DNA from: a virus
Lineage: Duplodnaviria; Heunggongvirae; Uroviricota; Caudoviricetes
IMG/VR virus record: IMGVR_UViG_2706794689_000016
Length of the DNA stretch: 14,260 bases
Strand: one strand, 5' to 3'
Shown: positions 1-14,260 of the stretch, piece after piece
Layout of the letters: each line of letters opens with the position of its first letter
How positions within the stretch are numbered: the stretch's first letter is position 1
The notes under the pieces: generated by a model
What the model was told of the DNA's origin: nothing
The model's database searches: none
Seen by the model: the letters and a program-made list of their open reading frames with translations, nothing else
Translations under genes and position numbers: made by a program

Positions 1-1250
1 CTACGATAACCGCGCATTCAACATGGCTACCTGTTCGTCGTTCATGTCATCAATCCACATACCGTAAATTTCATACACCATCTGCGCAGTTTCATGCCCC
101 ATCTGGCTGGCTATAAACGCCGGGTTCGCTCCTGCCGTCAACAGCCAGCAGGCAAAAGTATGCCGCGTATGGTACGGATTACGGCGGCGAATACCAGCAC
201 GTTTTACTGCTGCATTCCATCTCGCACCCAAACTGCTTACCGAGTAATAAGGTTTCTGTTTTCCGTTACACACTCTGGGCATGAAAACAAAATGCAGTTT
301 TTGCTTTTCGGTTCTGCCGTACTCCCGATGATAAAAAGTGATTTCGCTTTTGCGATGATGCCCGGTCAGTTTGTATTGCTCCTTCAGTGCTTCAAGAGCA
401 GGCTGCAGTAGTGTTACCGTCCGGATCCCCGCATTTGTTTTTGGGGGACCGAACATATCCAGTATCGTCAGGTTTCTTCTGACATTCACAACTCCCTTCT
501 CGAAATCCACATCCTCCCACGCCAGAGCAGCCAGTTCCCCGTGACGAAGCCCGGAGTATACGGCAAATTTCCACAAGTTCTGGCTCTGTCCTTTTTCACT
601 TTCCATTAATGCATTGAATTCTGTTTTAGATAACGGGTCAGGCTTTATTCTGTTTCTCTGTAATTTCTTTACTCCTTCAAATGGTTTGGTTGATATAAAT
701 CCCGACTGATACGCAAAACGTAACAACGAACAGAGCAGGGCGATATAGTTATCAACTGTGCGCACGGTTCTTCCTTTTTTGTTGGATCTTGGATTATCCA
801 GGTAAAGCGTTTCTCCATGCAGCAGTTCATTCCGGTAGTTTAAGATATCGCTATAACGAATATGCGATATCGGAGTACTCTCACAAATTATTATCCTGAG
901 TGTTTTTAATTGTGATTTCGTTTTCTTCATTGTGTTTGTTGTTAACTCTGTTTCTTTAATTTTTGTCCAGATATCACAAAGCTCCCCGAACGTTTTTATG
1001 ACCCTCGTTGTCACCATTTTTGNNNNNNNNNNNNNNNNNNNNNNNNNNNNNNNNNNNNNNNNNNNNNNNNNNNNNNNNNNNNNNNNNNNNNNNNNNNNNN
1101 NNNNNNNNNNNNNNNNNNNNNNNNNNNNNNNNNNNNNNNNNNNNNNNNNNNNNNNNNNNNNNNNNNNNNNNNNNNNNNNNNNNNNNNNNNNNNNNNNNNN
1201 NNNNNNNNNNNNNNNNNNNNNNNNNNNNNNNNNNNNNNNNNNNNNNNNNN
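1..1250 (-). CDS. intR: Tyrosine recombinase/integrase IntR, 3' end beyond the window start, 5' end inside masked run 1023-1276
   Basis: Minus-strand ORF reaching coordinate 1 without a stop; translation (…HTRHTFACWLLTAGANPAFIASQMGHETAQMVYEIY…) carries the phage-integrase catalytic region with the R..H..Y-type C-terminal motif. Start position is estimated, not seen. Confidence 0.8.
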
Positions 1251-1461
1251 NNNNNNNNNNNNNNNNNNNNNNNNNNGGATAGTTATACCAGATAATCCCT
1301 CGCTTACTGTCTGGCTTCCCTAAAGGAGATACTCGTTTGAAGTGGAAGCCTTCCACCCAACAGTTCTGGCGGTATGCTTCAATTTGTCTGGCCCCCAGAC
1401 CAGTGCGAAGCATCAGGCCGTATTCAACCATCCACTCTTCATTAAAGATTACTTGTGCCAT
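1246..1461 (-). CDS. xisR: Excisionase XisR (YdaQ-like); 3' end masked
   Basis: ATG at 1461..1459 preceded by GAGGTG 7 nt upstream; visible N-terminus [61 protein letters not shown] matches my recollection of Rac excisionase. The ORF track joins it to the integrase frame only because of the mask. Confidence 0.65.
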
Positions 1462-1607
1462 CGCATCACCTCTGGCAGGCGCCAATGTTAGACTTAAATT
1501 GACGCCCGATGTTGATTATTAATNNNNNNNNNNNNNNNNNNNNNNNNNNNNNNNNNNNNNNNNNNNNNNNNNNNNNNNNNNNNNNNNNNNNNNNNNNNNN
1601 NNNNNNN

Positions 1608-1802
1608 NNNNNNNNNNNNNNNNNNNNNNNNNNNNNNNNNNNNNNNNNNNNNNNNNNNNNNNNNNNNNNNNNNNNNNNNNNNNNNNNNNNNNNNNNNNNN
1701 NNNNNNNNNNNNNNNNNNNNNNNNNNNNNNNNNNNNNNNNNNNNNNNNNNNNNNNNNNNNNNNNNNNNNNNNNNNNNNNNNNTTAACATTGTCATATCTC
1801 AT
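1608..1802 (-). CDS. ralR: RalR (Lar) toxin / restriction-alleviation protein; only the first 6 codons visible, remainder in masked run 1524-1782
   Basis: Minus-strand ATG at 1802..1800 giving MRYDNV…, 55 nt downstream of the recT stop, as in the Rac arrangement recT-ralR. End coordinate is an estimate from the expected length of about 64 aa. Confidence 0.5.
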
Positions 1803-1828
1803 AATTTTTCTCATAAAAATATTTCAAG

Positions 1829-1851
1829 TTGGCGGTGCATTACACCGCCAG
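1829..1851. other. Stem-loop between recT stop and ralR start
   Basis: GGCGGTG-CATTA-CACCGCC (7-bp GC-rich stem, extendable by T-A and G-U pairs), located between the recT stop codon (1858) and the ralR start (1802). Confidence 0.4.
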
Positions 1852-1857
1852 GCTGAA

Positions 1858-2692
1858 TTATTCCTCTGAATTATCGATTACACTGTATTCCCCGGTTAAT
1901 ACAGAGGAATCTGCAGGATCGATTGTCAGTGGTTCCTTTTCATCCATTGATACTGCACGCTGGATCTCAATTGATACGGGCAGATATTTGAACAGGCGAC
2001 GAATAGCCGTTTTCTTTGCCATTTCTTCCCAGTGAGTTACCCACGGCCCGTTATTACCAGCTTTACTCTGGCTGCGCACCAGCTCAATCTGTTTGCGCGT
2101 CATAACTTCAAACTGAGTACCTCCGTCTTTCAGTCTTGCGACAGCATAGACGTGGGTAACAGGGGCATCTTCGTTTTCTCCTGGGCGGTGTATTAACTTT
2201 TCATCAAGGCCAAATTCGAAATTAAACTCGTCACCTTCACGGACAACACGGGCTGACAGGCTGGCGATTTGACCTGAACGGCGAGCCAGATCAATCATGC
2301 CGCGATAGCNNNNNNNNNNNNNNNNNNNNNNNNNNNNNNNNNNNNNNNNNNNNNNNNNNNNNNNNNNNNNNNNNNNNNNNNNNNNNNNNNNNNNNNNNNN
2401 NNNNNNNNNNNNNNNNNNNNNNNNNNNNNNNNNNNNNNNNNNNNNNNNNNNNNNNNNNNNNNNNNNNNNNNNNNNNNNNNNNNNNNNNNNNNNNNNNNNN
2501 NNNNNNNNNNNNNNNNNNNNNNNNNNNNNNNNNNNNNNNNNNNNNNNNNNNNNNNNNNNNNNNNNNNNNNNNNNNNNTCATTGATGGCTGGTTAATAAAA
2601 CTAATCACGTCGTTATTTTTAATTGCTGCTGGTGCACGGTTTCCCTGAGTTTTTTGCAGATCGGCTTTTGCGATTGGTGGTTGCTTAGTCAT
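1858..2692 (-). CDS. recT: RecT single-strand annealing protein (interrupted by masked run 2310-2577)
   Basis: N-terminus [38 protein letters not shown] and C-terminus …[29 protein letters not shown]…VIDNSEE* both recognisable as RecT; stop TAA at 1858-1860; start ATG at 2692..2690 with AAGGAA SD 8 nt upstream. Frame does not match across the mask (835 nt span), attributed to the mask. Confidence 0.93.
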
Positions 2693-5173
2693 TTGCATAT
2701 TCCTTAGCCCAGCGGGGCAGTGATAACGTCTTAATAGCTGGCCATTCATCGGTATTGAGGCAGTCAGCCAGGGTTCGCAGATTGCGGTGATATTCCAGCT
2801 GACCTGCCAGTTTTGCTTCTTCGCCCATCATGAAAATTNNNNNNNNNNNNNNNNNNNNNNNNNNNNNNNNNNNNNNNNNNNNNNNNNNNNNNNNNNNNNN
2901 NNNNNNNNNNNNNNNNNNNNNNNNNNNNNNNNNNNNNNNNNNNNNNNNNNNNNNNNNNNNNNNNNNNNNNNNNNNNNNNNNNNNNNNNNNNNNNNNNNNN
3001 NNNNNNNNNNNNNNNNNNNNNNNNNNNNNNNNNNNNNNNNNNNNNNNNNNNNNNNNNNNNNNNNNNNNNNNNNNNNNNNNNNNNNNNNNNNNNNNNNNNN
3101 NNNNNNNNGTAAATTGATGATTCAGCGTGTCCGGCGCTTTCAACAAGCCATTGCCCCAGCGGCAAAGCCATAACGCTCTGATACATGAGTTCAATTTTCC
3201 GGCCTTCTTCGGCAGTGATAACCGTTTTTCCTGTGCTTGCGCATTCCCTCAGAAACGCTTTCTCTTCTTCTTTTCCGGAGTTTGTCCGGCGGTTAAATTC
3301 AGGTGCTACGATAAAGCGGTTACTGAATTCTTCCGGCTCAAGTACCCGGCNNNNNNNNNNNNNNNNNNNNNNNNNNNNNNNNNNNNNNNNNNNNNNNNNN
3401 NNNNNNNNNNNNNNNNNNNNNNNNNNNNNNNNNNNNNNNNNNNNNNNNNNNNNNNNNNNNNNNNNNNNNNNNNNNNNNNNNNNNNNNNNNNNNNNNNNNN
3501 NNNNNNNNNNNNNNNNNNNNNNNNNNNNNNNNNNNNNNNNNNNNNNNNNNNNNNNNNNNNNNNNNNNNNNNNNNNNNNNNNNNNNNNNNNNNNNNNNNNN
3601 NNNNNNNNNNCCGCCAGTCTGGCCGCAGGCATTGCAGGCTATTTCCGGTTCCTGTTGCACTACTGGCTCAGGTTGATTCATATCCGGGCTGGTTTTTTCC
3701 GTTTCTGGCTGGTTCTGGTACACACAATCGCGAGTCTGGATCCCCTTTACCCATTTCGGATCGTTCGGGTCGCTAATTCCGTCAACAAATTCACCACGTG
3801 ATGCAGCAAGCAATTTATCGGCATCGACAGGATTTTTTGATGGAATGTTTTTCCGGGCTTCATGGAGTTCTGCCCGCAGTTCCTGATATTTCGCATCAAC
3901 AGAATTTACCTGTGACTGAGCATCCAGCGGCTGCGTGTCCTGATGATGTTCAGTTGCGTCCGGTTCCATTGTTTCAGCCTCTCCCTGTTCAACTGCCGTT
4001 GTTCCAGATGGTTGCGGTTTTTCTTCATCATCCTGTTTTCCTTCTTCTGTTACTCGCTGCGGCATCGGGGCAGAGGAGCGACCGCAGGCAATATCCACGA
4101 TTTCCGGATCAGGGTTGGCATGATCGGTTTCAGTCAGTACTTTGTTCAGATATTCAGTGACGTGCGCGGGGATGACCTCGATCCCAATTGGTGCTTCTTT
4201 TACGGACGCAACCACGATGGCGCGGGAATAATCCAGCCCGCCAGGCATGGTGATGAATTTGTCGCGGAAAACAGAAAAGGGCGGTTTATTTTCAGCGATA
4301 ATTTCCTCAATGCGTTTAGCGTGTGCCGGATGAAGGTTATAGATGTCCAGATCCATTGAACGGGCCAGTACGCCAGTGGCTACGTCCCGCGCCAGTGACG
4401 TCAGATCGTGTACGAAACCTTCGCCGCGATCGGTGAGGTTTCCGCCGCCAGCATTAGCACCGGAAGCCGTGCGAGTGATGTGTGAAACACGATTACCCTT
4501 CATCCACTCTTTTGTCAGCAGTCCTCGATCGGTGTAGTCAGCGTTCAGGTATGCTTCGAAAAAAGCAGTTATCAGTCCCAGGTTTGAATTACCAGGATTA
4601 GGGAAAACTTTGTCNNNNNNNNNNNNNNNNNNNNNNNNNNNNNNNNNNNNNNNNNNNNNNNNNNNNNNNNNNNNNNNNNNNNNNNNNNNNNNNNNNNNNN
4701 NNNNNNNNNNNNNNNNNNNNNNNNNNNNNNNNNNNNNNNNNNNNNNNNNNNNNNNNNNNNNNNNNNNNNNNNNNNNNNNNNNNNNNNNNNNNNNNNNNNN
4801 NNNNNNNNNNNNNNNNNNNNNNNNNNNNNNNNNNNNNNNNNNNNNNNNNNNNNNNNNNNNNNNNNNNNNNTTGATAGTGAGCGTTGTCTGGTGCTGCTCC
4901 CGGTTTTAGTTCCCATGTCATGGAGTCTTTGCTGAGTTGATAGCGTTCACTCCAGGTAAAATCGATCTCACCTTCAGCGGGCAGGTCATTAACGACAGGA
5001 AAATTCGTGGCAACAGCTTTAAAATAGCTGCTCAGTTTTTTACCTGACTTAACGATCAGGTAGTCCAGAGTGGCACAGGTCGATTCAAAATCGTTGCTTG
5101 CCCACAGGACGACGTCAGGTTCACCGGATGATTTTTTCGCTTTCCGTAACAGGAAGAGTGGTTTTGTGCTCAT
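2685..5173 (-). CDS. recE: RecE exonuclease VIII (interrupted by masked runs 2839-3108, 3351-3610, 4615-4870)
   Basis: N-terminus [46 protein letters not shown]…, middle block …[33 protein letters not shown]… and C-terminus …[51 protein letters not shown] recognisable as RecE. The stop TAA 2685-2687 overlaps the recT start in the arrangement AATGACTAA (coupled genes). Confidence 0.93.
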
Positions 5174-5244
5174 TGTTTTTTAACCTCAACTCAGATTAAA
5201 ATTCGTTTTGTTCAGTGAATGATCTTGCCGGATACACACTGTTC

Positions 5245-5269
5245 ATAGCCTGCGCCATACGCAGGCTAT
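5245..5269. other. Perfect 10-bp stem / 5-nt loop hairpin in the racC-recE intergenic region
   Basis: ATAGCCTGCG-CCATA-CGCAGGCTAT, 5 nt downstream of the racC stop; a T-rich run (TTCTTTC) follows on the plus strand only. Confidence 0.5.
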
Positions 5270-5274
5270 TTCTT

Positions 5275-5550
5275 TCAGATTTCACCTTTTAATTTCATTG
5301 CAATTAGAGTTGCCAGAAATTCGGCTTTTTTTTCTGCGGGCAGATTCTTTCCGATATGCACCAGGCACATTTTTTTGACACCTTCATCAAGTGTTTTTAC
5401 GTTGCCTGATGGACCATCGATATCAACCACAGTGAATGGGGTTTCTTTATTTTCTGTTTTAATTACGTAGCCAATGCGCTTTCCTTCCAGATTCACCTCG
5501 TGAACAATGTCATCGGTAGTTACAACAGTGGCTTCATAATTGGTAATCAT
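5275..5550 (-). CDS. racC: RacC, small Rac prophage protein of unknown function
   Basis: ATG at 5550..5548 with GGAG SD 8 nt upstream; 91-aa product MITNYEATVVTTDDIVHEVNLEGKRIGYVIKTENKETPFTVVDIDGPSGNVKTLDEGVKKMCLVHIGKNLPAEKKAEFLATLIAMKLKGEI; stop TGA 5275-5277. Confidence 0.85.
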   Translation of the reverse strand: MITNYEATVVTTDDIVHEVNLEGKRIGYVIKTENKETPFTVVDIDGPSGNVKTLDEGVKKMCLVHIGKNLPAEKKAEFLATLIAMKLKGEI

Positions 5551-5624
5551 GTTTTTCTCCTTAATTAAGGTTGAGCGAATACCTGCCATTTCTGGCATAA
5601 ATTCAGTTTCGAATAGTCAATTAA

Positions 5625-5795
5625 TTAAAGTTCATGTGCCATCTGGTCTTTTTCGGCACAAGCTTCACTGCAATATTTTCTCGGTTCGTCTTTTGATAAA
5701 ATCCCGTGCATGAAGTGAAGCATTCTTTCAATAGCTTTGCTTTCTTCAACGTCTTTTTTGCAAAGGTGGTAAGCACATTTTATTTTCTTAGTCAT
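5625..5795 (-). CDS. ydaE: YdaE, small Cys/His-rich (putative zinc-binding) Rac protein, 56 aa; below the ORF-track length cut-off
   Basis: Hand translation of the minus strand from ATG 5795..5793: [12 protein letters not shown]… ending …EKDQMAHEL followed by TAA at 5627..5625. The start overlaps the kilR stop (TGATG). Confidence 0.8.
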   Translation of the reverse strand: MTKKIKCAYHLCKKDVEESKAIERMLHFMHGILSKDEPRKYCSEACAEKDQMAHEL

Positions 5796-6016
5796 CACCA
5801 TGACTCCGCCTTTACAGGTAAACCATCACGACCGAGGAAGACTTTAATCATGCGGTCAGTAATGCATGTTTTTGTGGTCAGGTTACGAATATATAGTTTT
5901 CGCTTTTTAATATTGTTTGCCGAGGCAATATATGTCCGGCCTTCATGAAGAACATAATCGCCAGGAGTCACACACTGACGTGGTATTTCATCAGTTCCGA
6001 AGTGATGTGCAATCAT
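5795..6016 (-). CDS. kilR: KilR, prophage-encoded killing protein/cell-division inhibitor
   Basis: ATG at 6016..6014 with GGAG 7 nt upstream; 73-aa product [73 protein letters not shown]; the ORF-track start at 6028 is a 4-codon upstream extension. Confidence 0.85.
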
Positions 6017-6190
6017 AATTATCTCCATTTTTACAAATGAACTTTGTTGATGCGGTGCCTGGTGCCTCCAGGTGACTGCAACCAGTTAACAATTACAGTC
6101 GGCTTTCCCACCCAAACCAATAAGGACTAACATGACTTTTAACTGTGCCACGTGCGCTTAGCCGCATTCACCGCATCACAAAATTCACTT

Positions 6191-6239
6191 TAAAAAGGGC
6201 GGACATCAGCCGAACTTCAAGAAAAAAACTGATGCCGCC
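6191..6239 (-). terminator. Candidate intrinsic terminator for leftward transcription, between the immunity-proximal genes and kilR
   Basis: Minus-strand RNA GGCGGCAUCAG - 19-nt loop - CUGAUGUCCGCC (11 bp with one bulged U) followed by CUUUUUA; the U-tract is present only in the minus orientation. Confidence 0.5.
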
Positions 6240-6457
6240 AGGACTACACACAGCAATGTCGTTATTTACAACCGGAGGCGCACTCCCACCATTTAAATTT
6301 AACAGACAAGACCGACTCTTTATGGATATCGGAAATGCGCCTTCGTGTTGTGCCCGGTTTTATTTCACCACCTCCGGGCTTCGGTGGTCTCGGCTATACC
6401 CCTACAGCGAGAGCTTGTGTTAACATTTCAATACCCTTACAGTTGAGAGTTATTGAT

Positions 6458-6946
6458 ATGTTGGATGTATTTACTCCATTGTTGAAACTTTTTGCTAACG
6501 AGCCACTCGAAATACTTATGTATACGATTATCATTTTTGGTCTCACTCTCTGGCTGATACCGAAAGAGTTTACTGTCGCATTCAATGCTTATACTGAAAT
6601 ACCTTGGCTCTTTCAGATTATCGTTTTTGCCTTTTCTTTCGTGGTCGCCATTTCCTTCTCAAGATTGCGAGCACATATTCAAAAGCATTATTCATTACTA
6701 CCAGAGCAACGAGTATTGCTTCGTTTATCTGAGAAAGAAATCGCTGTATTTAAAGATTTCCTTAAAACAGGAAATCTTATTATCACTTCTCCTTGCCGTA
6801 ACCCGGTTATGAAAAAATTAGAACGGAAGGGCATCATTCAACATCAGAGTGATAGCGCAAACTGTTCTTATTATCTCGTCACCGAAAAATACTCCCATTT
6901 TATGAAGTTATTCTGGAACAGCAGGAGTAGACGTTTTAATCGTTAG
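6458..6946 (+). CDS. sieB: SieB superinfection-exclusion membrane protein
   Basis: ATG 6458-6460 with GAGAG SD; 162-aa hydrophobic product MLDVFTPLLKLFANEPLEILMYTIIIFGLTLWLIPKEF…; an in-frame upstream ATG at 6335 would give 203 aa but has a weaker SD. Confidence 0.85.
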   Translation: MLDVFTPLLKLFANEPLEILMYTIIIFGLTLWLIPKEFTVAFNAYTEIPWLFQIIVFAFSFVVAISFSRLRAHIQKHYSLLPEQRVLLRLSEKEIAVFKDFLKTGNLIITSPCRNPVMKKLERKGIIQHQSDSANCSYYLVTEKYSHFMKLFWNSRSRRFNR

Positions 6947-7098
6947 CTTACTGTGTGCTTCTCCAACCATCGGCGCGCACCAGTTTCGGTTTTAAATGTT
7001 TTGCTTTTGGTATACGTCATGGCAGTGAACGTTCCATCCTGGTTGGGGAACACGCCGCACACCAGGGATTCGTTGTTGCCGAGGTCGATTTTTTGCAT
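6943..7098 (-). CDS. ydaF: YdaF, small Rac protein of unknown function, 51 aa; below the ORF-track cut-off
   Basis: Hand translation of the minus strand from ATG 7098..7096: MQKIDLGNNESLVCGVFPNQDGTFTAMTYTKSKTFKTETGARRWLEKHTVS, stop TAA 6945..6943; its 3' end overlaps the sieB 3' end by 4 nt. Confidence 0.75.
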   Translation of the reverse strand: MQKIDLGNNESLVCGVFPNQDGTFTAMTYTKSKTFKTETGARRWLEKHTVS

Positions 7099-7108
7099 TT
7101 TGCGAATC

Positions 7109-7243
7109 TCACATCTTGTTGCTGTGTATAGCGACTTCTGCCTGCCAGAGATCCCAGTCGTTGCTGCGTAAAGCCTGCACAGCCTGGTTGTAAGTGATAC
7201 CGCAACAATCCATCAAATACTGAACTACTTCGTAATGCACCAT
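7109..7243 (-). CDS. ydaG: YdaG, small Rac protein of unknown function, 44 aa
   Basis: ATG 7243..7241 preceded by GGGGAGAG SD; product MVHYEVVQYLMDCCGITYNQAVQALRSNDWDLWQAEVAIHSNKM; the 60-aa track ORF starting at 7291 is an upstream extension without an SD. Confidence 0.8.
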   Translation of the reverse strand: MVHYEVVQYLMDCCGITYNQAVQALRSNDWDLWQAEVAIHSNKM

Positions 7244-7410
7244 CTTATCTCTCCCCTTAACGCCGGGTGGCGGAACTGAAACCTGCTGCACTGCAAAATC
7301 TGAACCCTGCCGTCATGTTCATACGCCTCGGGCTGGCTACTTAACCCCTGACCACTGCCTGGTAACTCGAAGTATTGCCCTGCGTTCTGTGGGGCGGGGT
7401 GGGTTGGTAG

Positions 7411-7465
7411 GTATATAATGTACTTTGTGTTCATTGATGTAAAGTACTATAAGTACATTTTGTGT
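7411..7465 (-). promoter_or_regulatory. Candidate leftward (pL-like) promoter with an inverted pair of the ATGTACT motif
   Basis: Minus strand TTTACA (7443..7438) - 17 nt - CATTAT (7420..7415); 9-bp inverted repeat AATGTACTT (7417-7425) / AAGTACATT (7451-7459) brackets the promoter; a perfect TATAAT also reads on the plus strand at 7414-7419. Confidence 0.4.
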
Positions 7466-7533
7466 GTAAAAAAATGAGATGGGATAAAGTGAAGCACAAA
7501 CCCGGAGGGGGACGCTACCGGATTTATGCTGGT

Positions 7534-7953
7534 TTAAGAGGCTTTTTGTTTTTTCTTTCGTGCTAGCTCTTCGTAAATTGCATTGTACTTCTGTTTTTTC
7601 TCCTCAAGAGTTTTTAAAAGTTCATCTGTCTCACTGTCAGGGAGCTCGTCCAGAAGGTCAATGATGATTTTTTGTCTTGGATTTAACTCCTGATAGAAAC
7701 GTACCTGTCCACTTTCTTCTGTATCCTCTCCCAAAAGATAGGTTGGTGTTGTTCCAATGAGTGTTGCTAATTCCCTTAATTTCTCTCGGCGAGGAATTGT
7801 TTCGCCATTAAACCATTTGCTAACCGCTTTTGGTGTTAATTTCATTCGACGGGCAATTTCTGCCTGCCTTCCATGTTGTTCATAACCAGCGTTTTCACAG
7901 GCTAGCGCAAGCCTACTGGCGAACTCTTTACGCGCTTTATCTTCATGAACCAT
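7534..7953 (-). CDS. racR: RacR, cI-like HTH_XRE prophage repressor
   Basis: Product MVHEDKARKEFASRLALACENAGYEQHGRQAEIARRMKLTPKAVSKWFNGETIPRREKLRELATLIGTTPTYLLGED… has a clear helix-turn-helix; divergent from ydaS. Start is ATG 7953 (139 aa) or GTG 7971 (145 aa); neither has an SD. Confidence 0.8.
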   Translation of the reverse strand: MVHEDKARKEFASRLALACENAGYEQHGRQAEIARRMKLTPKAVSKWFNGETIPRREKLRELATLIGTTPTYLLGEDTEESGQVRFYQELNPRQKIIIDLLDELPDSETDELLKTLEEKKQKYNAIYEELARKKKQKAS

Positions 7954-7971
7954 AAGTTCAATGATATTCAC

Positions 7972-8032
7972 TCTTGAATGTACTGTCAGTTCTGTTATAG
8001 CATGTACTCAAAGTTCACATTGTGAGGGTGAT
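7972..8032 (+). promoter_or_regulatory. racR-ydaS divergent control region: candidate rightward promoter for ydaS with two direct ATGTACT operator-like motifs
   Basis: TTGAAT (7974-7979) - 16 nt - TATAGC (7996-8001); ATGTACT at 7978-7984 overlaps the -35 and at 8002-8008 overlaps the -10/start region; followed by the ydaS SD. Confidence 0.5.
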
Positions 8033-8287
8033 ATGAACCAGAAAACACTTGAAGATGTAATCAAAACTGTTCGCGTTTCTGTTGTGGCCGACGTTTGTGG
8101 TGTCAGCCAAAGAGCAATCTACAAATGGATGGATAACGGAAAATTGCCTCGCACAGAATATACCGGCGAAACAAATTACGCTGAAAAAATCGCTCATGCA
8201 TCAAACGGATTATTTTCTGCTGATGTAATTTTAACTATTGGCAGAAATAAAACTACTACGAAAAAGCTGATGGGAGTTGATTCATGA
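8033..8287 (+). CDS. ydaS: YdaS, Cro-like small DNA-binding protein
   Basis: ATG 8033-8035 with GAGGGTG SD; product MNQKTLEDVIKTVRVSVVADVCGVSQRAIYKWMDNGKLPRTEYTGETNYAEKIAHASNGLF…; stop TGA overlaps the ydaT ATG (ATGA). Confidence 0.8.
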   Translation: MNQKTLEDVIKTVRVSVVADVCGVSQRAIYKWMDNGKLPRTEYTGETNYAEKIAHASNGLFSADVILTIGRNKTTTKKLMGVDS

Positions 8288-8710
8288 AAATCAAGCATGA
8301 GCACATCGAGTCAGTGTTGTTAGCCCTGGCAGCCGAAAAAGGGCAGGCATGGGTAGCCAATGCCATTACTGAAGAATATCTGCGCCAGGGGGGCGGCGAA
8401 TTGCCCCTGGTACCAGGCAAGGACTGGAATAATCAGCAGAATATCTATCACCGTTGGTTGAAAGGTGAAACGAAAACGCAAAGAGAAANNNNNNNNNNNN
8501 NNNNNNNNNNNNNNNNNNNNNNNNNNNNNNNNNNNNNNNNNNNNNNNNNNNNNNNNNNNNNNNNNNNNNNNNNNNNNNNNNNNNNNNNNNNNNNNNNNNN
8601 NNNNNNNNNNNNNNNNNNNNNNNNNNNNNNNNNNNNNNNNNNNNNNNNNNNNNNNNNNNNNNNNNNNNNNNNNNNNNNNNNNNNNNNNNNNNNNNNNNNN
8701 NNNNNNNNNN
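8284..8710 (+). CDS. ydaT: YdaT; 3' end lies in masked run 8489-8760, end coordinate estimated
   Basis: ATG 8284 with GGGAG SD 8 nt upstream, overlapping the ydaS stop; N-terminus MKIKHEHIESVLLALAAEKGQAWVANAITEEYLRQGGGELPLVPGKDWNNQQNIYHRWLKGETKTQRE recognisable as Rac YdaT. Confidence 0.7.
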
Positions 8711-8788
8711 NNNNNNNNNNNNNNNNNNNNNNNNNNNNNNNNNNNNNNNNNNNNNNNNNNCCACCGGGCAGCATCATACGGGGCAATT

Positions 8789-9595
8789 ATGGCCGCATTA
8801 CCATACATGCAACTGTACATAGCTGATTACCTGGCTGACACCATGCATTTGTCAGCAGAGGAGCATGGTGCGTATTTGTTGCTGATGTTCAATTACTGGC
8901 AAACAGGAAAGCCAATACCTAAAAACAGGCTGGCAAAAATTGCCCGTCTGACTAACGAGCGATGGGCTGATGTTGAACCATCCTTGCAGGAGTTTTTTTG
9001 CGATAACGGCGAGGAATGGGTGCATCTTCGGATTGAGGAAGATCTGGCATCAGTCAGGGAAAAATTAACCAAAAAATCAGCCGCAGGAAAAGCATCTGTT
9101 CAGGCCAGAAGAAGCAGAAAGGAAGCAGATGTTCAAACAAAACAAGAGAGAAATTTAACAGGTGTTCAAACAGATGTTGAAGTGGTGTTTGAACATGATG
9201 TCAACACAAAGGCAACTAATAAAGATACAGNNNNNNNNNNNNNNNNNNNNNNNNNNNNNNNNNNNNNNNNNNNNNNNNNNNNNNNNNNNNNNNNNNNNNN
9301 NNNNNNNNNNNNNNNNNNNNNNNNNNNNNNNNNNNNNNNNNNNNNNNNNNNNNNNNNNNNNNNNNNNNNNNNNNNNNNNNNNNNNNNNNNNNNNNNNNNN
9401 NNNNNNNNNNNNNNNNNNNNNNNNNNNNNNNNNNNNNNNNNNNNNNNNNNNNNNNNNNNNNNNNNNNNNNNNNNNNNNNNNNNNGAATACCAGGGCTTGT
9501 TCGCGCCGAAAGGTGTTCGACCTGAGACGTTACTCCGACAGGTTAACACCGTCTCGTTACCGGATAGTGCGATCCCGCCAGGCTTCAGGGGGTAA
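8789..9595 (+). CDS. ydaU: YdaU, DUF1376-family phage replication-associated protein (masked run 9231-9484 inside)
   Basis: ATG 8789 (MAALPYMQLYIADYLADTMHLSAEEHGAYLLLMFNYWQTGKPIPKNRLAKIARLTNERWADVEPSLQEFF…), C-terminus …EYQGLFAPKGVRPETLLRQVNTVSLPDSAIPPGFRG*, stop TAA 9593-9595. Start could lie further upstream inside the mask. Confidence 0.75.
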   Translation: MAALPYMQLYIADYLADTMHLSAEEHGAYLLLMFNYWQTGKPIPKNRLAKIARLTNERWADVEPSLQEFFCDNGEEWVHLRIEEDLASVREKLTKKSAAGKASVQARRSRKEADVQTKQERNLTGVQTDVEVVFEHDVNTKATNKDTXXXXXXXXXXXXXXXXXXXXXXXXXXXXXXXXXXXXXXXXXXXXXXXXXXXXXXXXXXXXXXXXXXXXXXXXXXXXXXXXXXXXXEYQGLFAPKGVRPETLLRQVNTVSLPDSAIPPGFRG

Positions 9596-9890
9596 CTGAC
9601 CATGAAAAATATTGCGACAGGCGACGTTCTTGAACGTATCCGCAGACTGGCCCCGTCACATGTAACCGCGCCATTCAAGACGGTAGCGGAGTGGCGCGAG
9701 TGGCAACTTTCCGAAGGCCAGAAACGTTGTGAGGAGATCAACCGTCAGAATCGTCAGTTGCGGGTGGAAAAAATTCTGAATCGCTCTGGCATCCAGCCAT
9801 TGCACCGCAAATGCTCGTTTTCGAATTACCAGGTGCAGAACGAAGCGCAGCGATACGCGTTGAGTCAGGCGAAATCCATCGCTGATGAAC
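9485..9890 (+). repeat. Direct repeat, copy 1 (ydaU 3' end + ydaV 5' part)
   Basis: Aligns to 10363-10445 and 10705-10757 in copy 2 with offsets of 878 and 867 nt; 5 of 83 positions differ in the ydaU-tail block and 6 of 53 in the ydaV block. Confidence 0.8.
9602..9890 (+). CDS. ydaV: DnaC/IstB-like replication protein YdaV, first copy: N-terminal 96 codons visible; possibly truncated or chimeric downstream
   Basis: ATG 9602, 6 nt after the ydaU stop; MKNIATGDVLERIRRLAPSHVTAPFKTVAEWREWQLSEGQKRCEEINRQNRQLRVEKILNRSGIQPLHRKCSFSNYQVQNEAQRYALSQAKSIADE then mask; sequence after the mask is a ydaU-like C-terminal segment, not the ydaV continuation. Confidence 0.5.
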
Positions 9891-10142
9891 NNNNNNNNNN
9901 NNNNNNNNNNNNNNNNNNNNNNNNNNNNNNNNNNNNNNNNNNNNNNNNNNNNNNNNNNNNNNNNNNNNNNNNNNNNNNNNNNNNNNNNNNNNNNNNNNNN
10001 NNNNNNNNNNNNNNNNNNNNNNNNNNNNNNNNNNNNNNNNNNNNNNNNNNNNNNNNNNNNNNNNNNNNNNNNNNNNNNNNNNNNNNNNNNNNNNNNNNNN
10101 NNNNNNNNNNNNNNNNNNNNNNNNNNNNNNNNNNNNNNNNNN

Positions 10143-10480
10143 TCGCCAAAAACGAGCGTCTAAAAAATTCGAGCCGGAGGCTATTGAGCTGCCCGATTGG
10201 TTGCCGGAAACACTCTGGCATGAGTGGGTCCGGTTCAGACAGGCATTGCGAAAACCGATTCGAACGGAGCAGGGCGCTAACGGGGCGATACGGGAACTGG
10301 AAAAATTCCGTCAGCAGGGTTTTACACCTGAGCAGGTGATTCGACACAGCATCGCCAATGAATACCAGGGCCTGTTCGCGCCGAAAGGTGTTCGGCCTGA
10401 GACGTTGCTCCGACAGGTTAACACCGTCTCGTTGCCGGACAGTGCNNNNNNNNNNNNNNNNNNNNNNNNNNNNNNNNNNN
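10143..10480 (+). CDS. Second copy of the YdaU C-terminal region (DUF1376 C-terminal segment); both ends masked, may be a gene fragment or part of a fusion
   Basis: Frame beginning at 10143 reads …RPKRASKKFEPEAIELPDWLPETLWHEWVRFRQALRKPIRTEQGANGAIRELEKFRQQGFTPEQVIRHSIANEYQGLFAPKGVRPETLLRQVNTVSLPDS…; its tail is identical in protein to the ydaU tail at 9485-9568. Confidence 0.5.
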
Positions 10481-10765
10481 NNNNNNNNNNNNNNNNNNNN
10501 NNNNNNNNNNNNNNNNNNNNNNNNNNNNNNNNNNNNNNNNNNNNNNNNNNNNNNNNNNNNNNNNNNNNNNNNNNNNNNNNNNNNNNNNNNNNNNNNNNNN
10601 NNNNNNNNNNNNNNNNNNNNNNNNNNNNNNNNNNNNNNNNNNNNNNNNNNNNNNNNNNNNNNNNNNNNNNNNNNNNNNNNNNNNNNNNNNNNNNNNNNNN
10701 NNNNGAACGACGGCCAGCGATACGCGTTAAGCCAGGCGAAATCCATCGCCGATGAACTGATGACC
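10363..10765 (+). repeat. Direct repeat, copy 2 (ydaU-like tail + ydaV-like segment)
   Basis: See copy 1; visible parts 10363-10445 and 10705-10757, interior masked by run 10446-10704. Confidence 0.8.
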
Positions 10766-11200
10766 GGGTGTACAAATTTTGCGTTCAGCGGAAAACCTGG
10801 TACCGGGAAGAATCACTTAGCGGCAGCTATCGGGAATCGCCTGCTGAAAGACGGTCAGACAGTGATTGTGGTTACCGTGGCTGATGTTATGAGCGCCCTG
10901 CACGCCAGCTATGACGACGGGCAGTCAGGCGAAAAATTTTTGCGGGAGCTGTGCGAAGTGGATCTGCTGGTTCTTGATGAAATTGGCATTCAGCGCGAGA
11001 CGAAAAACGAGCAGGTGGTGCTGCACCAGATTGTTGATCGCCGGACAGCGTCGATGCGCAGCGTGGGGATGCTGACAAACCTGAACTATGAGGCCATGAA
11101 AACNNNNNNNNNNNNNNNNNNNNNNNNNNNNNNNNNNNNNNNNNNNNNNNNNNNNNNNNNNNNNNNNNNNNNNNNNNNNNNNNNNNNNNNNNNNNNNNNN
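10470..11200 (+). CDS. ydaV: DnaC/IstB-like AAA+ helicase-loader (YdaV-like), second copy; Walker A and B present; both ends masked
   Basis: Visible 10705-11103: …NDGQRYALSQAKSIADELMTGCTNFAFSGKPGTGKNHLAAAIGNRLLKDGQTVIVVTVADVMSALHASYDDGQSGEKFLRELCEVDLLVLDEIGIQRETKNEQVVLHQIVDRRTASMRSVGMLTNLNYEAMKT; Walker A GKPGTGKN, Walker B LLVLDE. Start and end positions estimated. Confidence 0.6.
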
Positions 11201-11358
11201 NNNNNNNNNNNNNNNNNNNNNNNNNNNNNNNNNNNNNNNNNNNNNNNNNNNNNNNNNNNNNNNNNNNNNNNNNNNNNNNNNNNNNNNNNNNNNNNNNNNN
11301 NNNNNNNNNNNNNNNNNNNNNNNNNNNNNNNNNNNNNNNNNNNNNNNNNNNNNNNNNN

Positions 11359-11711
11359 ACGGTCGGGTCACGATTCGGCAGTTGTCAGATGAAACAGGTA
11401 TCAGTCGTGCGTCTGTCGGTCGCTTATGCATAGAACTGGTCGCAAGTGGTGATGTATATAATTCTGGCTACGGCTTATTCCCGTCTGAACAGGCTCGCAA
11501 GGACTGGCAAAGCGCCCGCAAAAAACTCTCGAGAGTAAAGGTGAGGAAACCGGTTGTTGTTGATCCGGACCTTATCTGGTCATTACCTGACGGAGAAATA
11601 CGCCGCTACGACAGGCGCCTGAATATAATCTGTCGCGAGTGCCGGAAGAGCGAAGCTATGCAGCGTGTACTGGCTTTCTATCAGGGTAATTTTCAGGAGG
11701 CGATACTGTGA
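11359..11711 (+). CDS. Putative helix-turn-helix DNA-binding protein of unknown function (5' end masked)
   Basis: Open frame from the mask edge: …GRVTIRQLSDETGISRASVGRLCIELVASGDVYNSGYGLFPSEQARKDWQSARKKLSRVKVRKPVVVDPDLIWSLPDGEIRRYDRRLNIICRECRKSEAMQRVLAFYQGNFQEAIL*, stop TGA 11709-11711; HTH-like stretch TIRQLSDETGISRASVGRL. Confidence 0.55.
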
Positions 11712-11768
11712 ATGAAATTAGCTATCAGGCTTCAATTACCGCTGGCATTCGCATCAAAGGAGAGGAGC

Positions 11769-12125
11769 ATGGAAATAAAACCAGAAGATGAGTTAAGCAA
11801 TATCGTTTTATTTCCGGTAAAAGAGGATGACCCTCGTAATCAGGTTAATTTTCTTTATGAGCCATCGGAAAGACCATATTGCCATCACGCCTCTGTACGG
11901 GTTGACGAAAAAGAGCGTCAGGTCCGCTGTAAAATCTGCGGTGCGGTTGTGGAGCCGTTTGACTGGATGCTCTCTGTGGCAAAAAGAGAAACCAGACTGG
12001 CAGATGATGTAAGGCTATTGCGCCAGGAGGAACAGGAAAGGCGGAGAAATATAGAAAAGCTGATACAGATTGAGCGTAACGCGAAAGCGCGGATACGCAG
12101 GGCGACAAAATCCAGAACTGAATAA
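11769..12125 (+). CDS. Hypothetical protein with C-H-H…CxxC zinc-ribbon-like motif and basic coiled-coil C-terminus
   Basis: ATG 11769 preceded by strong SD AAGGAGAGGAG; 118 aa MEIKPEDELSNIVLFPVKEDDPRNQVNFLYEPSERPYCHHASVRVDEKERQVRCKICGAVVEPFDWMLSVAKRETRLADDVRLLRQEEQERRRNIEKLIQIERNAKARIRRATKSRTE; the longer track ORF from 11712 lacks an SD. Confidence 0.6.
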   Translation: MEIKPEDELSNIVLFPVKEDDPRNQVNFLYEPSERPYCHHASVRVDEKERQVRCKICGAVVEPFDWMLSVAKRETRLADDVRLLRQEEQERRRNIEKLIQIERNAKARIRRATKSRTE

Positions 12126-12272
12126 TTAAATTTAGCACTGTTAAAAATTTAATCCTTAACCGGAGGGATTTCTGCACCCTCAAATCATCAGGAGACCACC
12201 CGAAAGGGCGGGGAGCAGTCACACATCTGTTTCCGATAGCCCCGTTCTAATGCTACACTCTTTGATATTTTT

Positions 12273-12959
12273 ATGACCCCAATAAACATATTTATGACAG
12301 TTGCTGATTTCAAACGGCCCAAATTGGAGCTCCCAAACGGGGCAAACAAACTACTACTGCACTCTTGCTGTGCTCCATGTTCCGGTGAGGTGATGGAGGC
12401 GCTTCAGGCCTCGGGAATCGACTACACCATCTTTTTCTACAACCCGAACATTCATCCTCAGAAAGAGTATTTAATTCGTAAGGATGAGAATATTCGCTTT
12501 GCTGAACAACACGGCGTGCCGTTTATTGATGCTGATTACGACACAGACAACTGGTTTGAACGAGCCAAAGGAATGGAATGGGAGCCCGAACGAGGGATCC
12601 GTTGCACCATGTGTTTTGACATGCGTTTTGAGCGGACAGCGCTGTACGCCGCTGAAAATGGTTTCAGTGTGATCAGCAGTTCACTGGGCATTTCACGCTG
12701 GAAAAATATGCAGCAGGTTAACGACTGTGGGCGGCGAGCCGTCGCGCATTATCCGGGCATGGTGTACTGGGATTATAACTGGCGCAAGCAGGGCGGCTCG
12801 TCCCGTATGATTGAAATCAGCAAGCGCGAAAAATTCTATCAGCAGGAATATTGTGGCTGTGTGTATTCTCTGCGCGATACCAATCTACACCGCAAATCTC
12901 AGGGACGCCCTCTTATCAAAATTGGTCAACTCCACTACGGTAAAGAAGAGAAGGAGTGA
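12273..12959 (+). CDS. queH: QueH-like (DUF208) epoxyqueuosine reductase homologue, prophage cargo gene
   Basis: 228-aa ORF with motifs I associate with DUF208/QueH: [11 protein letters not shown] near the N-terminus, [12 protein letters not shown] in the middle and [11 protein letters not shown] near the C-terminus. Start is ATG 12273 or 12294; neither has an SD. Assignment is from motif memory, not a search. Confidence 0.7.
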
Positions 12960-12963
12960 TTTT

Positions 12964-13236
12964 ATGGGGCACCTTTCTGATNNNNNNNNNNNNNNNNNNN
13001 NNNNNNNNNNNNNNNNNNNNNNNNNNNNNNNNNNNNNNNNNNNNNNNNNNNNNNNNNNNNNNNNNNNNNNNNNNNNNNNNNNNNNNNNNNNNNNNNNNNN
13101 NNNNNNNNNNNNNNNNNNNNNNNNNNNNNNNNNNNNNNNNNNNNNNNNNNNNNNNNNNNNNNNNNNNNNNNNNNNNNNNNNNNNNNNNNNNNNNNNNNNN
13201 NNNNNNNNNNNNNNNNNNNNNNNNNNNNNNNAGTGA
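12964..13236 (+). CDS. Hypothetical protein, almost entirely inside masked run 12982-13231
   Basis: ATG 12964 (MGHLSD…) placed 7 nt after AAGGAG and 5 nt after the queH stop, so probably co-transcribed with queH; end is estimated from the first in-frame stop after the mask. Confidence 0.4.
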   Translation: MGHLSDXXXXXXXXXXXXXXXXXXXXXXXXXXXXXXXXXXXXXXXXXXXXXXXXXXXXXXXXXXXXXXXXXXXXXXXXXXXXXXXXXXXX

Positions 13237-13339
13237 CGGCACTGGTAACGAGGAAAGACCTCTGTGAGGTACGAATCCGAACCGGCCAGACGGAGGTCGC
13301 TGTCTTCGTAGACTACGAATCCAGGAAGTAAGAGTGACC

Positions 13340-13367
13340 GGGCGGGGAGCTGATCCCATCCCCGCCC
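13340..13367. other. GC-rich 9-bp stem-loop in non-coding DNA
   Basis: GGGCGGGGA - GCTGATCCCA - TCCCCGCCC; no adjoining U-tract on either strand. Confidence 0.5.
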
Positions 13368-13406
13368 ACCTCTGATGTGTCAGGCATCCTCAACGCACCC
13401 GCACTT

Positions 13407-13460
13407 AACCCGCCCATCGCTGTGATCTCTCAGCGTTTCGGCGGGTTTTTTGTTGTTTAT
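13407..13460 (+). terminator. Candidate rho-independent terminator (plus strand) in the nin-like region
   Basis: AACCCGCC (13407-13414) pairs with GGCGGGTT (13440-13447); 25-nt loop contains an inner CGCTG/CAGCG stem; followed directly by TTTTTTGTTGTTTATTT. Confidence 0.5.
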
Positions 13461-13471
13461 TTCCGGTGAAT

Positions 13472-13499
13472 TTGATTCGCGCACCTTCGCAGATAGAAT
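13472..13499 (+). promoter_or_regulatory. Candidate sigma70 promoter for the 95-aa ORF and the DUF1367 gene
   Basis: TTGATT (13472-13477) - 16 nt - TAGAAT (13494-13499), immediately downstream of the terminator-like hairpin. Confidence 0.45.
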
Positions 13500-13580
13500 C
13501 GACTCACTTAAGTAGCGCGCAGGGAGAAGAGGGATGGACCCCGAACAGGGGAGAGCTATTTATCTGGAAGGATTCTGAAG

Positions 13581-13868
13581 ATGAAAATCGAAGAATTGCG
13601 TGAAATTTTTAGTGAAAATGGCCTCTATGCTGTGCGCGTTGAGAATGGAGCGATTGTCAGCCATTGCCGCATTAGATGTTTGCAATCTCAACAAAGGAAG
13701 AGCGGTGCTGTGTTATTTTATTTTTGTAATGGACTTCTGACGGACGGTTTTATTTTGCGTGAGGACGAATTTGTCACATCATTACGGGTTTTGAAAGAGA
13801 TTGGTTTTAAGGCTGGTTTTCTGCTTTTGCTGAAGAATAAACTCATCTACAATCTTGAGCAGGATTGA
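13581..13868 (+). CDS. Hypothetical 95-aa protein
   Basis: ATG 13581 with GGAAGGA SD 8 nt upstream and a promoter-like TTGATT-N16-TAGAAT upstream; MKIEELREIFSENGLYAVRVENGAIVSHCRIRCLQSQQRKSGAVLFYFCNGLLTDGFILREDEFVTSLRVLKEIGFKAGFLLLLKNKLIYNLEQD; no family recognised. Confidence 0.5.
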   Translation: MKIEELREIFSENGLYAVRVENGAIVSHCRIRCLQSQQRKSGAVLFYFCNGLLTDGFILREDEFVTSLRVLKEIGFKAGFLLLLKNKLIYNLEQD

Positions 13869-13906
13869 ACTCCTGCTGTGTAACACCGTGCCACCGGAGA
13901 AAGCCG

Positions 13907-14260
13907 ATGGCACATATACAACTGGTCAAACAAACCTCTTCCGGATTACTTCTCCCGGCGACGCCGGAGAGTTGCGATTTTCTGCATCAAATCAAAATAG
14001 GTGAGTGGATACACGCAGACTTTAAGCGTGTGTGTAACTACGCATTCCACAAGCGTTTTTTCAAACTCCTGCAACTGGGTTTCGATTACTGGACTCCGGT
14101 CGGTGGGGCGATCACGCCTCGCGAACGAAAACTGGTGTCCGGTTTCGTTGATTACCTGTGTGAATCAGTAGGCCGGGAACATACGCCAGCTCTGAGCGAA
14201 GCCGCAGAGCAATTGAGGTGTACTGGCAATAGCGGACACTACCATTTGTTCTTTTTTTAA
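13907..14260 (+). CDS. DUF1367 (YbcN-like) nin-region protein, 3' end beyond the window
   Basis: ATG 13907 with GGAG 8 nt upstream; MAHIQLVKQTSSGLLLPATPESCDFLHQIKIGEWIHADFKRVCNYAFHKRFFKLLQLGFDYWTPVGGAITPRERKLVSGFVDYL… resembles my recollection of DLP12 YbcN; the track ORF start at 13865 is a TTG extension. Confidence 0.65.
   Translation: MAHIQLVKQTSSGLLLPATPESCDFLHQIKIGEWIHADFKRVCNYAFHKRFFKLLQLGFDYWTPVGGAITPRERKLVSGFVDYLCESVGREHTPALSEAAEQLRCTGNSGHYHLFFF

Follow-up and report, generated by a model that had tools for sequence, protein, structure and literature searches.

The replication module of the Rac prophage, described in E. coli K-12 and relatives, comprises a ydaT-like gene, ydaU (DUF1376) and, after a 6-nt spacer, ydaV, which encodes an IstB/DnaC-like ATPase; in complete genomes it occurs once per prophage and is then followed by DUF1627/ydaW. 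A related arrangement is found in the prophage that adjoins modABC in the finished genome CP000038 (locus L009), where an IS-disrupted ydaU-B, ydaV-B, DUF977 and QueH stand in this order and the immunity region is of the dicA type. The third system of relevance here is an assembly phenomenon, the false heterotype duplication (Ko et al., 2022, Genome Biol 23:205, PMC9516828), in which diverged versions of a sequence lie adjacent on a scaffold with a gap between them, inflating the apparent gene content; gaps between copies are a stated hallmark of such false duplications.

In the window, that is, the whole stretch of 14,260 nt analysed here, a first copy has the make-up of the Rac module, from the ydaT-like gene through ydaV, and is 99.5-100% identical to the E. 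coli loci L001 and L016. Unlike Rac, the window carries in the place of DUF1627 a second module, of another allele, which is reached only across N runs. This second copy and the sequence downstream match the CP000038 prophage (10143-10445 at 100%, 10705-11103 at 99.5% and 11359-14260 at 100%), but on its left side that prophage has an IS, a ydaT-like gene, cro and a dicA-type repressor rather than the Rac-type ydaU-A and ydaV-A, and at two marker sites it reads TG instead of CC. The layout resembles that of a false heterotype duplication, with the difference that the two versions are probably paralogous modules of two prophages in a haploid genome, not diploid haplotypes; the criteria of Ko et al. 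include read depth and pair discordance, and the likeness drawn here is one of sequence layout. Taken together, our analysis of the sequences points to a scaffolding origin for the apparent direct repeat, which is likely a false duplication in which the alleles of two prophages were laid end to end. The features concerned are the following, copy 1 being termed allele A and copy 2 allele B:

8761-9595, plus strand: ydaU allele A (DUF1376 family), visible at 8761-9230 and 9485-9595, with its start (about 8738) and middle in N runs
9602-9890, plus strand: ydaV allele A, a DnaC/IstB-like gene of 747 nt represented by its first 289 nt (96 codons), 100% identical to L014 4256-4544
9891-10142, no strand: N run of 252 nt at the supposed ydaV'-'ydaU junction, present as the same N run in contig L015
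10143-10445, plus strand: 3' fragment of ydaU allele B, nt 462-764 of a 789-nt gene, placed by alignments to annotated loci
10446-10704, no strand: N run of 259 nt covering the ydaU-B stop, the 6-nt spacer and ydaV-B nt 1-236 (corresponding distance in L005/L009, 267 nt)
10705-11103, plus strand: ydaV nt 237-635, with the allele B base at each of seven diagnostic SNPs; L004/L005 match it at 100% and L009 at 99.5%
11104-11358, no strand: N run of 255 nt that conceals the ydaV 3' end and whatever comes next
11359-11711, plus strand: DUF977 gene from about nt 71 onward, of the allele that N-free contigs carry immediately behind B-type ydaV

Two long direct repeats link these pieces, and the repeat finder returned no others in the whole 14,260-nt window. 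The longer one, D2, relates 9485-9570 to 10360-10445 (86 nt, 94% identity), pairing the end of ydaU-A in copy 1 with the end of ydaU-B in copy 2, and none of its five differences alters an amino acid (Leu, Arg, Leu, Leu and Asp codons); it is the repeat already described in the first-pass annotation, except that its second copy starts at 10360 and not at 10363, a 3-nt offset. The shorter one, D5, relates 9838-9890, which is nt 237-289 of ydaV-A, to 10705-10757 in ydaV-B (53 nt, 89% identity), and we confirm its six base differences, which fall in five codons and include two amino-acid changes (NEAQ versus NDGQ). Also borne out is the ydaU-like C-terminal segment that had been noticed from 10143 onward: 10143-10445 is a ydaU 3' segment, 99.7% identical to L005 4001-4303 within the 789-nt ydaU-B. 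Other parts of that description have to be reduced. The repeat had been taken as continuous over 0.9 kb, and its visible overlap comes to only 86 plus 53 nt; the second DnaC-like gene had been called apparently complete, and only nt 237-635 of 747 are visible, with both ends inside N runs.

The visible pieces of the first copy are of allele A throughout. Those of ydaU-A are 100% identical to L014 3415-3884 and 4139-4249 and to the complete E. coli genome L016, and copy 1 is 100% identical to the allele A of L014; the sequence at 8761-9230 and 9485-9890 is 99.5-100% identical to the Rac-type ydaU (858 nt) and the first 289 nt of ydaV (747 nt) in the E. coli loci L001 and L002. The ydaV-A piece stops at the edge of the densely diverged zone between A and B, the last clustered A/B SNP lying 7 nt earlier. 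Copy 2 is of allele B. For the ydaU piece in it, 10143-10445, the identity is 100% to L009 3922-4224, in a separate prophage of the finished genome CP000038, as well as to L007, L008 and L013, and 99.7% to L004/L005; its first 70 nt are without an allele A counterpart, and only positions 71-303 align to A, at 92.7%. Its ydaV piece is 99.5% identical to CP000038 and 100% identical to the E. coli B-type loci L004/L005.

At the protein level, the full-length ydaU-A product from L014 matches PF07120 (DUF1376; E = 2.7e-26, residues 22-104) and the L014 YdaV matches PF01695 (IstB_IS21, the IstB-like AAA+ ATP-binding domain; E = 1.4e-20), as does the ydaV piece of the window at 10706-11101 (E = 1.9e-17). 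No Pfam match was obtained for the C-terminal YdaU fragment of allele B (10144-10443), for the intact 262-aa allele B YdaU protein from L005, or for the 96-residue N-terminus of the copy 1 YdaV, which lies upstream of the IstB domain. Downstream of the modules, the block from 11359 to the window end is 100% identical in L008-L015 through 12981, the part at 13232-14260 is 100% identical in L008, L009 and L012-L015, and a QueH protein is fully visible at 12273-12959. The 139-aa repressor of the window is very common (32,452 index blocks), and the contexts returned for it were from E. coli only.

The two alleles occur apart from each other, A alone in L016 and L001 and B alone in L005, L008 and L009. 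Across the 3' end of ydaU and the 5' end of ydaV they diverge by about 8%: in the 3' part of ydaU, 11 differing codons are synonymous and 3 nonsynonymous, and in ydaV 13 are synonymous and 10 nonsynonymous. These patterns support the view that the copies are two long-diverged, functional and selectively maintained alleles of one replication module. Along the sequence, in L014 coordinates, L014 and L009 differ at 44 sites within 3992-4537 (about 550 nt) and at one more at 4600, and are identical over 4601-8049. True A sequences (L012, L016 and L001) equal B sequences (L009 and L010) for 280 nt at 4601-4880, and diverge from them again at 4881-4882 and beyond. In N-free genomes this last position serves as a marker, 'CC' occurring with a downstream DUF1627 and 'TG' with DUF977 directly downstream.

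In this regard, the ydaV piece at 10705-11103, which crosses the 280-nt stretch identical in A and B, is of allele B at all seven of its left-hand markers (7/7), yet its right end reads 'CC', and the piece that comes after it is the DUF977 allele that follows in 'TG' genomes. L014 holds the reciprocal combination, A on the left and 'TG' on the right. At least one of the joins in the window and in L014 must reflect either crossing over or a mis-join within the 280 nt that A and B share. The true length behind 11104-11358 would be 196 nt with the L009 layout, or about 970 nt if the DUF1627 gene is present, as 'CC' suggests.

The N runs that separate all these pieces had been regarded in the first-pass annotation as masks that could be removed. 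Within 8400-11800 they lie at 9231-9484, 9891-10142, 10446-10704 and 11104-11358, and the whole window holds twelve, each of 250-272 nt. Every visible piece of the window matches, at 100% and with one constant offset, contig CWUI01000052.1 of the draft assembly GCA_001249935.1 (L015), and the record of this contig fetched from NCBI contains six N runs that are exactly the six window N runs within the overlap; since the same N runs stand in the source contig, they cannot be 'unmasked'. They are most likely part of the deposited scaffold, with a small chance that the data store imposed them. Contigs with similar accession prefixes (L010-L013) carry N runs of their own, of 250-284 nt plus one of 113 nt, while L014 and all finished genomes are N-free. 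The assembly accessions gave no hits in the literature.

We then compared the N runs with the true gap distances, taken from N-free relatives 99.9-100% identical on both sides of each run. Given as N run/true distance in nt, the pairs are 254/246, 259/393, 268/243, 270/248, 260/383, 256/267, 272/253, 254/254, 259/267, 255/196 and 250/261. The N-run lengths are nominal, being 250-272 nt whatever the true distance (196-393 nt). As a consequence, the spacings of the repeats (875 nt for D2 and 867 nt for D5), both of which take in N runs of unfaithful length, are uninformative, and reading frames and long ORFs followed across N runs are meaningless. A frameshifting deletion in copy 2, considered as the source of the 8-nt difference in spacing, was rejected on the same grounds.

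Sibling assemblies provide a direct comparison of the region. L012, L013, L014 and L015 share flanks that are 100% identical (left, 1.6-3.2 kb; right, 2.6 kb), and between ydaU and DUF977 these four siblings present four layouts. L014 has, without any N, a single ydaU-A/ydaV with DUF977, a 118-aa gene and QueH immediately downstream. In L012 ydaV-A runs N-free into the DUF1627 gene, over a sequence 99.6% identical to the complete E. coli genome L016 across 906 nt, and an N run and DUF977 come next. The layout of L013 is A, N, B (3694-4551), N and B again from 4327, with a perfect 225-nt duplicate astride the second N run (3848-4072 equals 4327-4551), so that this scaffolding process can write overlapping contig ends as if they were separated by a gap. 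The layout of L015, that of the window, is A, N, B (3922-4224), N, B (4492-4890), N and DUF977.

The points at which the pieces end are also telling. In L014 coordinates, the allele A pieces of the window and of L013 stop at the same base, 4544, and the allele B piece of L013 stops at 4551, 7 nt beyond; contigs that stop where the A and B paths merge appear to follow the pattern of a fork in an assembly graph. De Bruijn k-mer arithmetic was tried for the contig end at 4544, and no single k fits. After this same base, allele B begins in L013 228 nt further upstream than in the window, which is not expected from a shared real junction with faithful gap sizes.

The first-pass annotation had suggested a comparison with other Rac-like prophages, and we found no tandem in the IMG/VR loci or in the complete E. 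coli genomes examined. IMG/VR was scanned with YdaV and the best 80 loci were kept, 71 of which carry both markers. Within these 71, every A-type locus (52/52) has the DUF1627 spacing and a DUF977 allele at most 91% identical to that of the window, whereas all B-type loci with direct spacing (17/17) have DUF977 immediately downstream, 15 of the 17 at 99% or more; the DUF977 allele of the window, at a threshold of at least 99%, is thus found in 15/17 B-type loci versus 0/52 A-type loci with DUF1627. Two loci are exceptions: L026, identical to L014 over 7,744 nt, and L090, a scaffold with three alleles of one segment in series (99.6%, 91.2% and 95.7% identical to L009), separated by single Ns. 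An N-free A-to-B tandem is absent among the 71 loci. When 9485-10445 was compared with 5,426 complete E. coli genomes, the top hit had 97.6% identity and spanned 623 nt in a single-copy arrangement; a genuine tandem of A and B would have ranked first, with about 100% over 961 nt, so this result speaks against a tandem. Complete E. coli genomes queried for the structure of the window returned only single-copy layouts, and the allele combinations that flank each N run were not found in the N-free contigs examined.

These findings bear on the chimeric ydaV-ydaU' junction proposed in the first-pass annotation for 9891-10142. At these positions the short-read scaffold consists of unsequenced Ns, and siblings with identical flanks disagree on the layout. 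The same annotation had suggested that two homologous modules, rather than a decaying duplication, were joined by recombination; the copies are distinct old alleles, in agreement with that view, and it is their physical joining that is not supported. An assembly artefact, which it had named as the outcome that would overturn its reading, is now the likeliest one, given the conflicting siblings and the lack of an N-free tandem in the material surveyed. All three adjacencies (9891-10142, 10446-10704 and 11104-11358) rest on N runs, and every piece is separated from the next by a gap. A gap lies between the copies, the distinct alleles occupy separate loci in finished genomes, and false duplicates or inconsistent joins arise from the same process elsewhere (L013, the four sibling layouts and L090), whereas neither uninterrupted junction sequence nor the same arrangement in the relatives and finished genomes examined, as a genuine tandem would offer, was found.

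We propose that a false duplication would have arisen as follows. The source strain would carry two lambdoid prophages with homologous ydaU-ydaV modules, one of the Rac type (allele A), normally followed by DUF1627 in the N-free genomes examined, and one of the CP000038 type (allele B), normally followed directly by DUF977 and QueH. With short reads, the diverged parts of the modules would have fallen into separate small contigs, and the identical 280-nt part would have been collapsed or cross-joined. The scaffolder would then have tied both left-hand contigs to one downstream contig, placing them in series with nominal N runs between them, and the two visible repeats would be the overlap of the A and B contigs in homologous coordinates. 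Some observations count against a scaffolding artefact: two siblings (L013 and L015) both show A before B, and a real structure would also recur; L063 holds a genuine juxtaposition of two modules on N-free sequence, with an IS element between them; the N-run lengths cluster at 250-284 nt; and there is a small chance that the N runs were imposed by the data store and not by the submitters.

The recurrence in L013 and L015 also favours a real chimeric locus, in which two lambdoid prophages or phages would have recombined, illegitimately or through short homologies, to leave a truncated ydaV-A, a 5'-truncated ydaU-B and a full ydaV-B, and with them a true tandem repeat of about 0.9 kb with diverged copies. 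The replication modules of lambdoid phages are mosaics, and the exchange of modules is well known in these phages; L014/L026 represent an N-free hybrid with A on the left and B on the right, its crossover inside ydaV. The copies are also clearly distinct alleles. The junction, however, is without a single sequenced base, and L012 and L014, with flanks identical to those of the window, show ydaV-A intact past the supposed break. A shared chimera would moreover require three copies of the ydaV 5' part in L013, including the perfect 225-nt duplicate, and would have to accommodate starts of allele B that differ between L013 and the window after N runs of similar size, and neither the 71 IMG/VR loci nor the complete E. 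coli genomes provide an example. We consider such a recombinant locus unlikely, and it is a shade less likely still that the scaffold order is correct as it stands, that is, that a Rac prophage contains a truncated ydaV-A, a 5'-truncated ydaU-B and a second ydaV.

A variant of a real rearrangement places an IS within 9891-10142, through recombination between a copy in ydaV-A and the one by which ydaU-B is interrupted in finished genomes of the CP000038 type. In CP000038 a 1.26-kb IS does split ydaU-B, IS copies are places where contigs break, and in the N-free L063 the ydaV-DUF1627-DUF977 block of another prophage adjoins IS-'ydaU-B-ydaV-B. Nevertheless, allele B does not start at the IS boundary but 122 nt inside it in L013 and 350 nt inside it in the window, the siblings L012 and L014 are without an IS at that site, and the allele B contig of L013 also stops at the A/B merge point, for which an IS in ydaV-A gives no explanation; gaps of about 250 nt would not be expected either from read pairs spanning a 1.26-kb IS. 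We regard this variant as very improbable. A recent tandem duplication of one ydaU-ydaV unit, with copies that have since drifted, has in its favour only the head-to-tail order of homologous segments, and is refuted by the allele identities: unrelated genomes carry an allele B that matches copy 2 at 100% (ydaU) and 99.5-100% (ydaV), copy 1 matches A at 100%, the two alleles differ by 6-11%, and the first 70 nt of 10143-10445 are without any allele A homologue. Its probability is close to nil.

Together, our findings indicate that the tandem is probably not a real feature, and that counting it as a duplication or as a chimeric gene would probably amount to a false gene gain. They also call for caution with repeat spacings, reading frames and 'fusions' read across nominal scaffold gaps, which are unreliable. 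If the tandem were real, it would represent a frozen intermediate in the exchange of replication modules between two lambdoid prophages, with a direct repeat of 0.9 kb whose diverged copies could undergo deletion or amplification, and would add a modest case of module mosaicism in defective prophages, a process that is already well known in lambdoid phages.

The whole window may combine two prophages as a chimera, with one at positions 1-9890 and the other at 10143-14260. The left part shares 99.9-100% identity with the Rac-type prophage of a complete E. coli genome (L016), while the right part is 100% identical to the prophage adjoining modABC in the finished genome CP000038. The genes on each side are as follows:

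Window 1-9890, left part: intR, recT, recE, kilR, sieB, repressor and ydaU-A (allele A, Rac-type replication module).
Window 10143-14260, right part: DUF977, a 118-aa gene, QueH, hok, Rem and DUF1367.
Window 12273-12959, plus strand: QueH (epoxyqueuosine reductase, PF02677), intact, 228 aa, prophage-encoded.

The two sides are connected on two N-free contigs, the sibling draft L014 and the IMG/VR locus L026, with the crossover lying within a 280-nt identical stretch of ydaV; this join reflects either natural recombination or a chimeric contig. The exact QueH protein was found in 171 index blocks, mostly on contigs of 2-5 kb, which would fit IS copies or repeats usually flanking the segment.

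Across its full length (1-14260), the window carries 12 N runs, each of 250-272 nt, at sites where near-identical N-free relatives show true distances of 196 to 393 nt. The N runs of the sibling scaffolds span 250-284 nt, and since lengths appear to be grouped by assembly (e.g., 275-280 nt in sibling L011), they suggest a nominal gap size specific to the library or pipeline. recE is read as two ORFs within 2764-5173:

Window 2764-4503, minus strand: recE, one ORF.
Window 4598-5173, minus strand: recE, other ORF.

This split falls at the N run 4615-4870, whose 256 nt stand against a true 267 nt in L016. Given this coincidence with an N run of unfaithful length, the recE break is probably a gap artefact and not a pseudogene.

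In sibling scaffold L013, a 254-nt N run separates perfect 225-nt duplicates (3848-4072 and 4327-4551), which clearly shows contig ends that overlap but were recorded as a gap. As assembled, sibling contig L011 (CWUN01000140.1) lacks at 254-255 a 143-nt segment of ydaV-A corresponding to window 9704-9846; this loss would be expected to shift the frame, whether it reflects a genuine deletion or an assembly error. The independent scaffold L090 (IMGVR_UViG_2693429676_000010, 25-2968) bears three ydaV-DUF977 alleles in series with single Ns between them, at 99.6%, 91.2% and 95.7% identity to the CP000038 locus, and looks like the same artefact of serial scaffolding, produced by another pipeline.

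A genuine juxtaposition is found in the N-free IMG/VR locus L063 (IMGVR_UViG_2690316346_000006, 2-4722), where two replication modules are adjacent with an IS between them, in this order:

ydaV-DUF1627-DUF977 block of another prophage (about 80% identical), upstream.
IS of 1.26 kb.
'ydaU-B, then ydaV-B (allele B, CP000038-type module).

Therefore, two replication modules can become neighbours through IS-mediated rearrangement.

The immunity region of the window is of a third type, matching neither racR/ydaS of the Rac-type E. coli locus L001 nor the repressor pair of the allele B loci L004/L005:

Window 7534-8287: 139-aa HTH repressor (minus strand); divergent gene encoding 84 aa.

With 32,452 index blocks, the exact 139-aa repressor protein is very common; it accompanies several different replication modules, namely DUF1376+IstB, 356-aa, 320-aa and DnaT+lambda P. 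These varied partners illustrate the free reassortment of repressor and replication modules.
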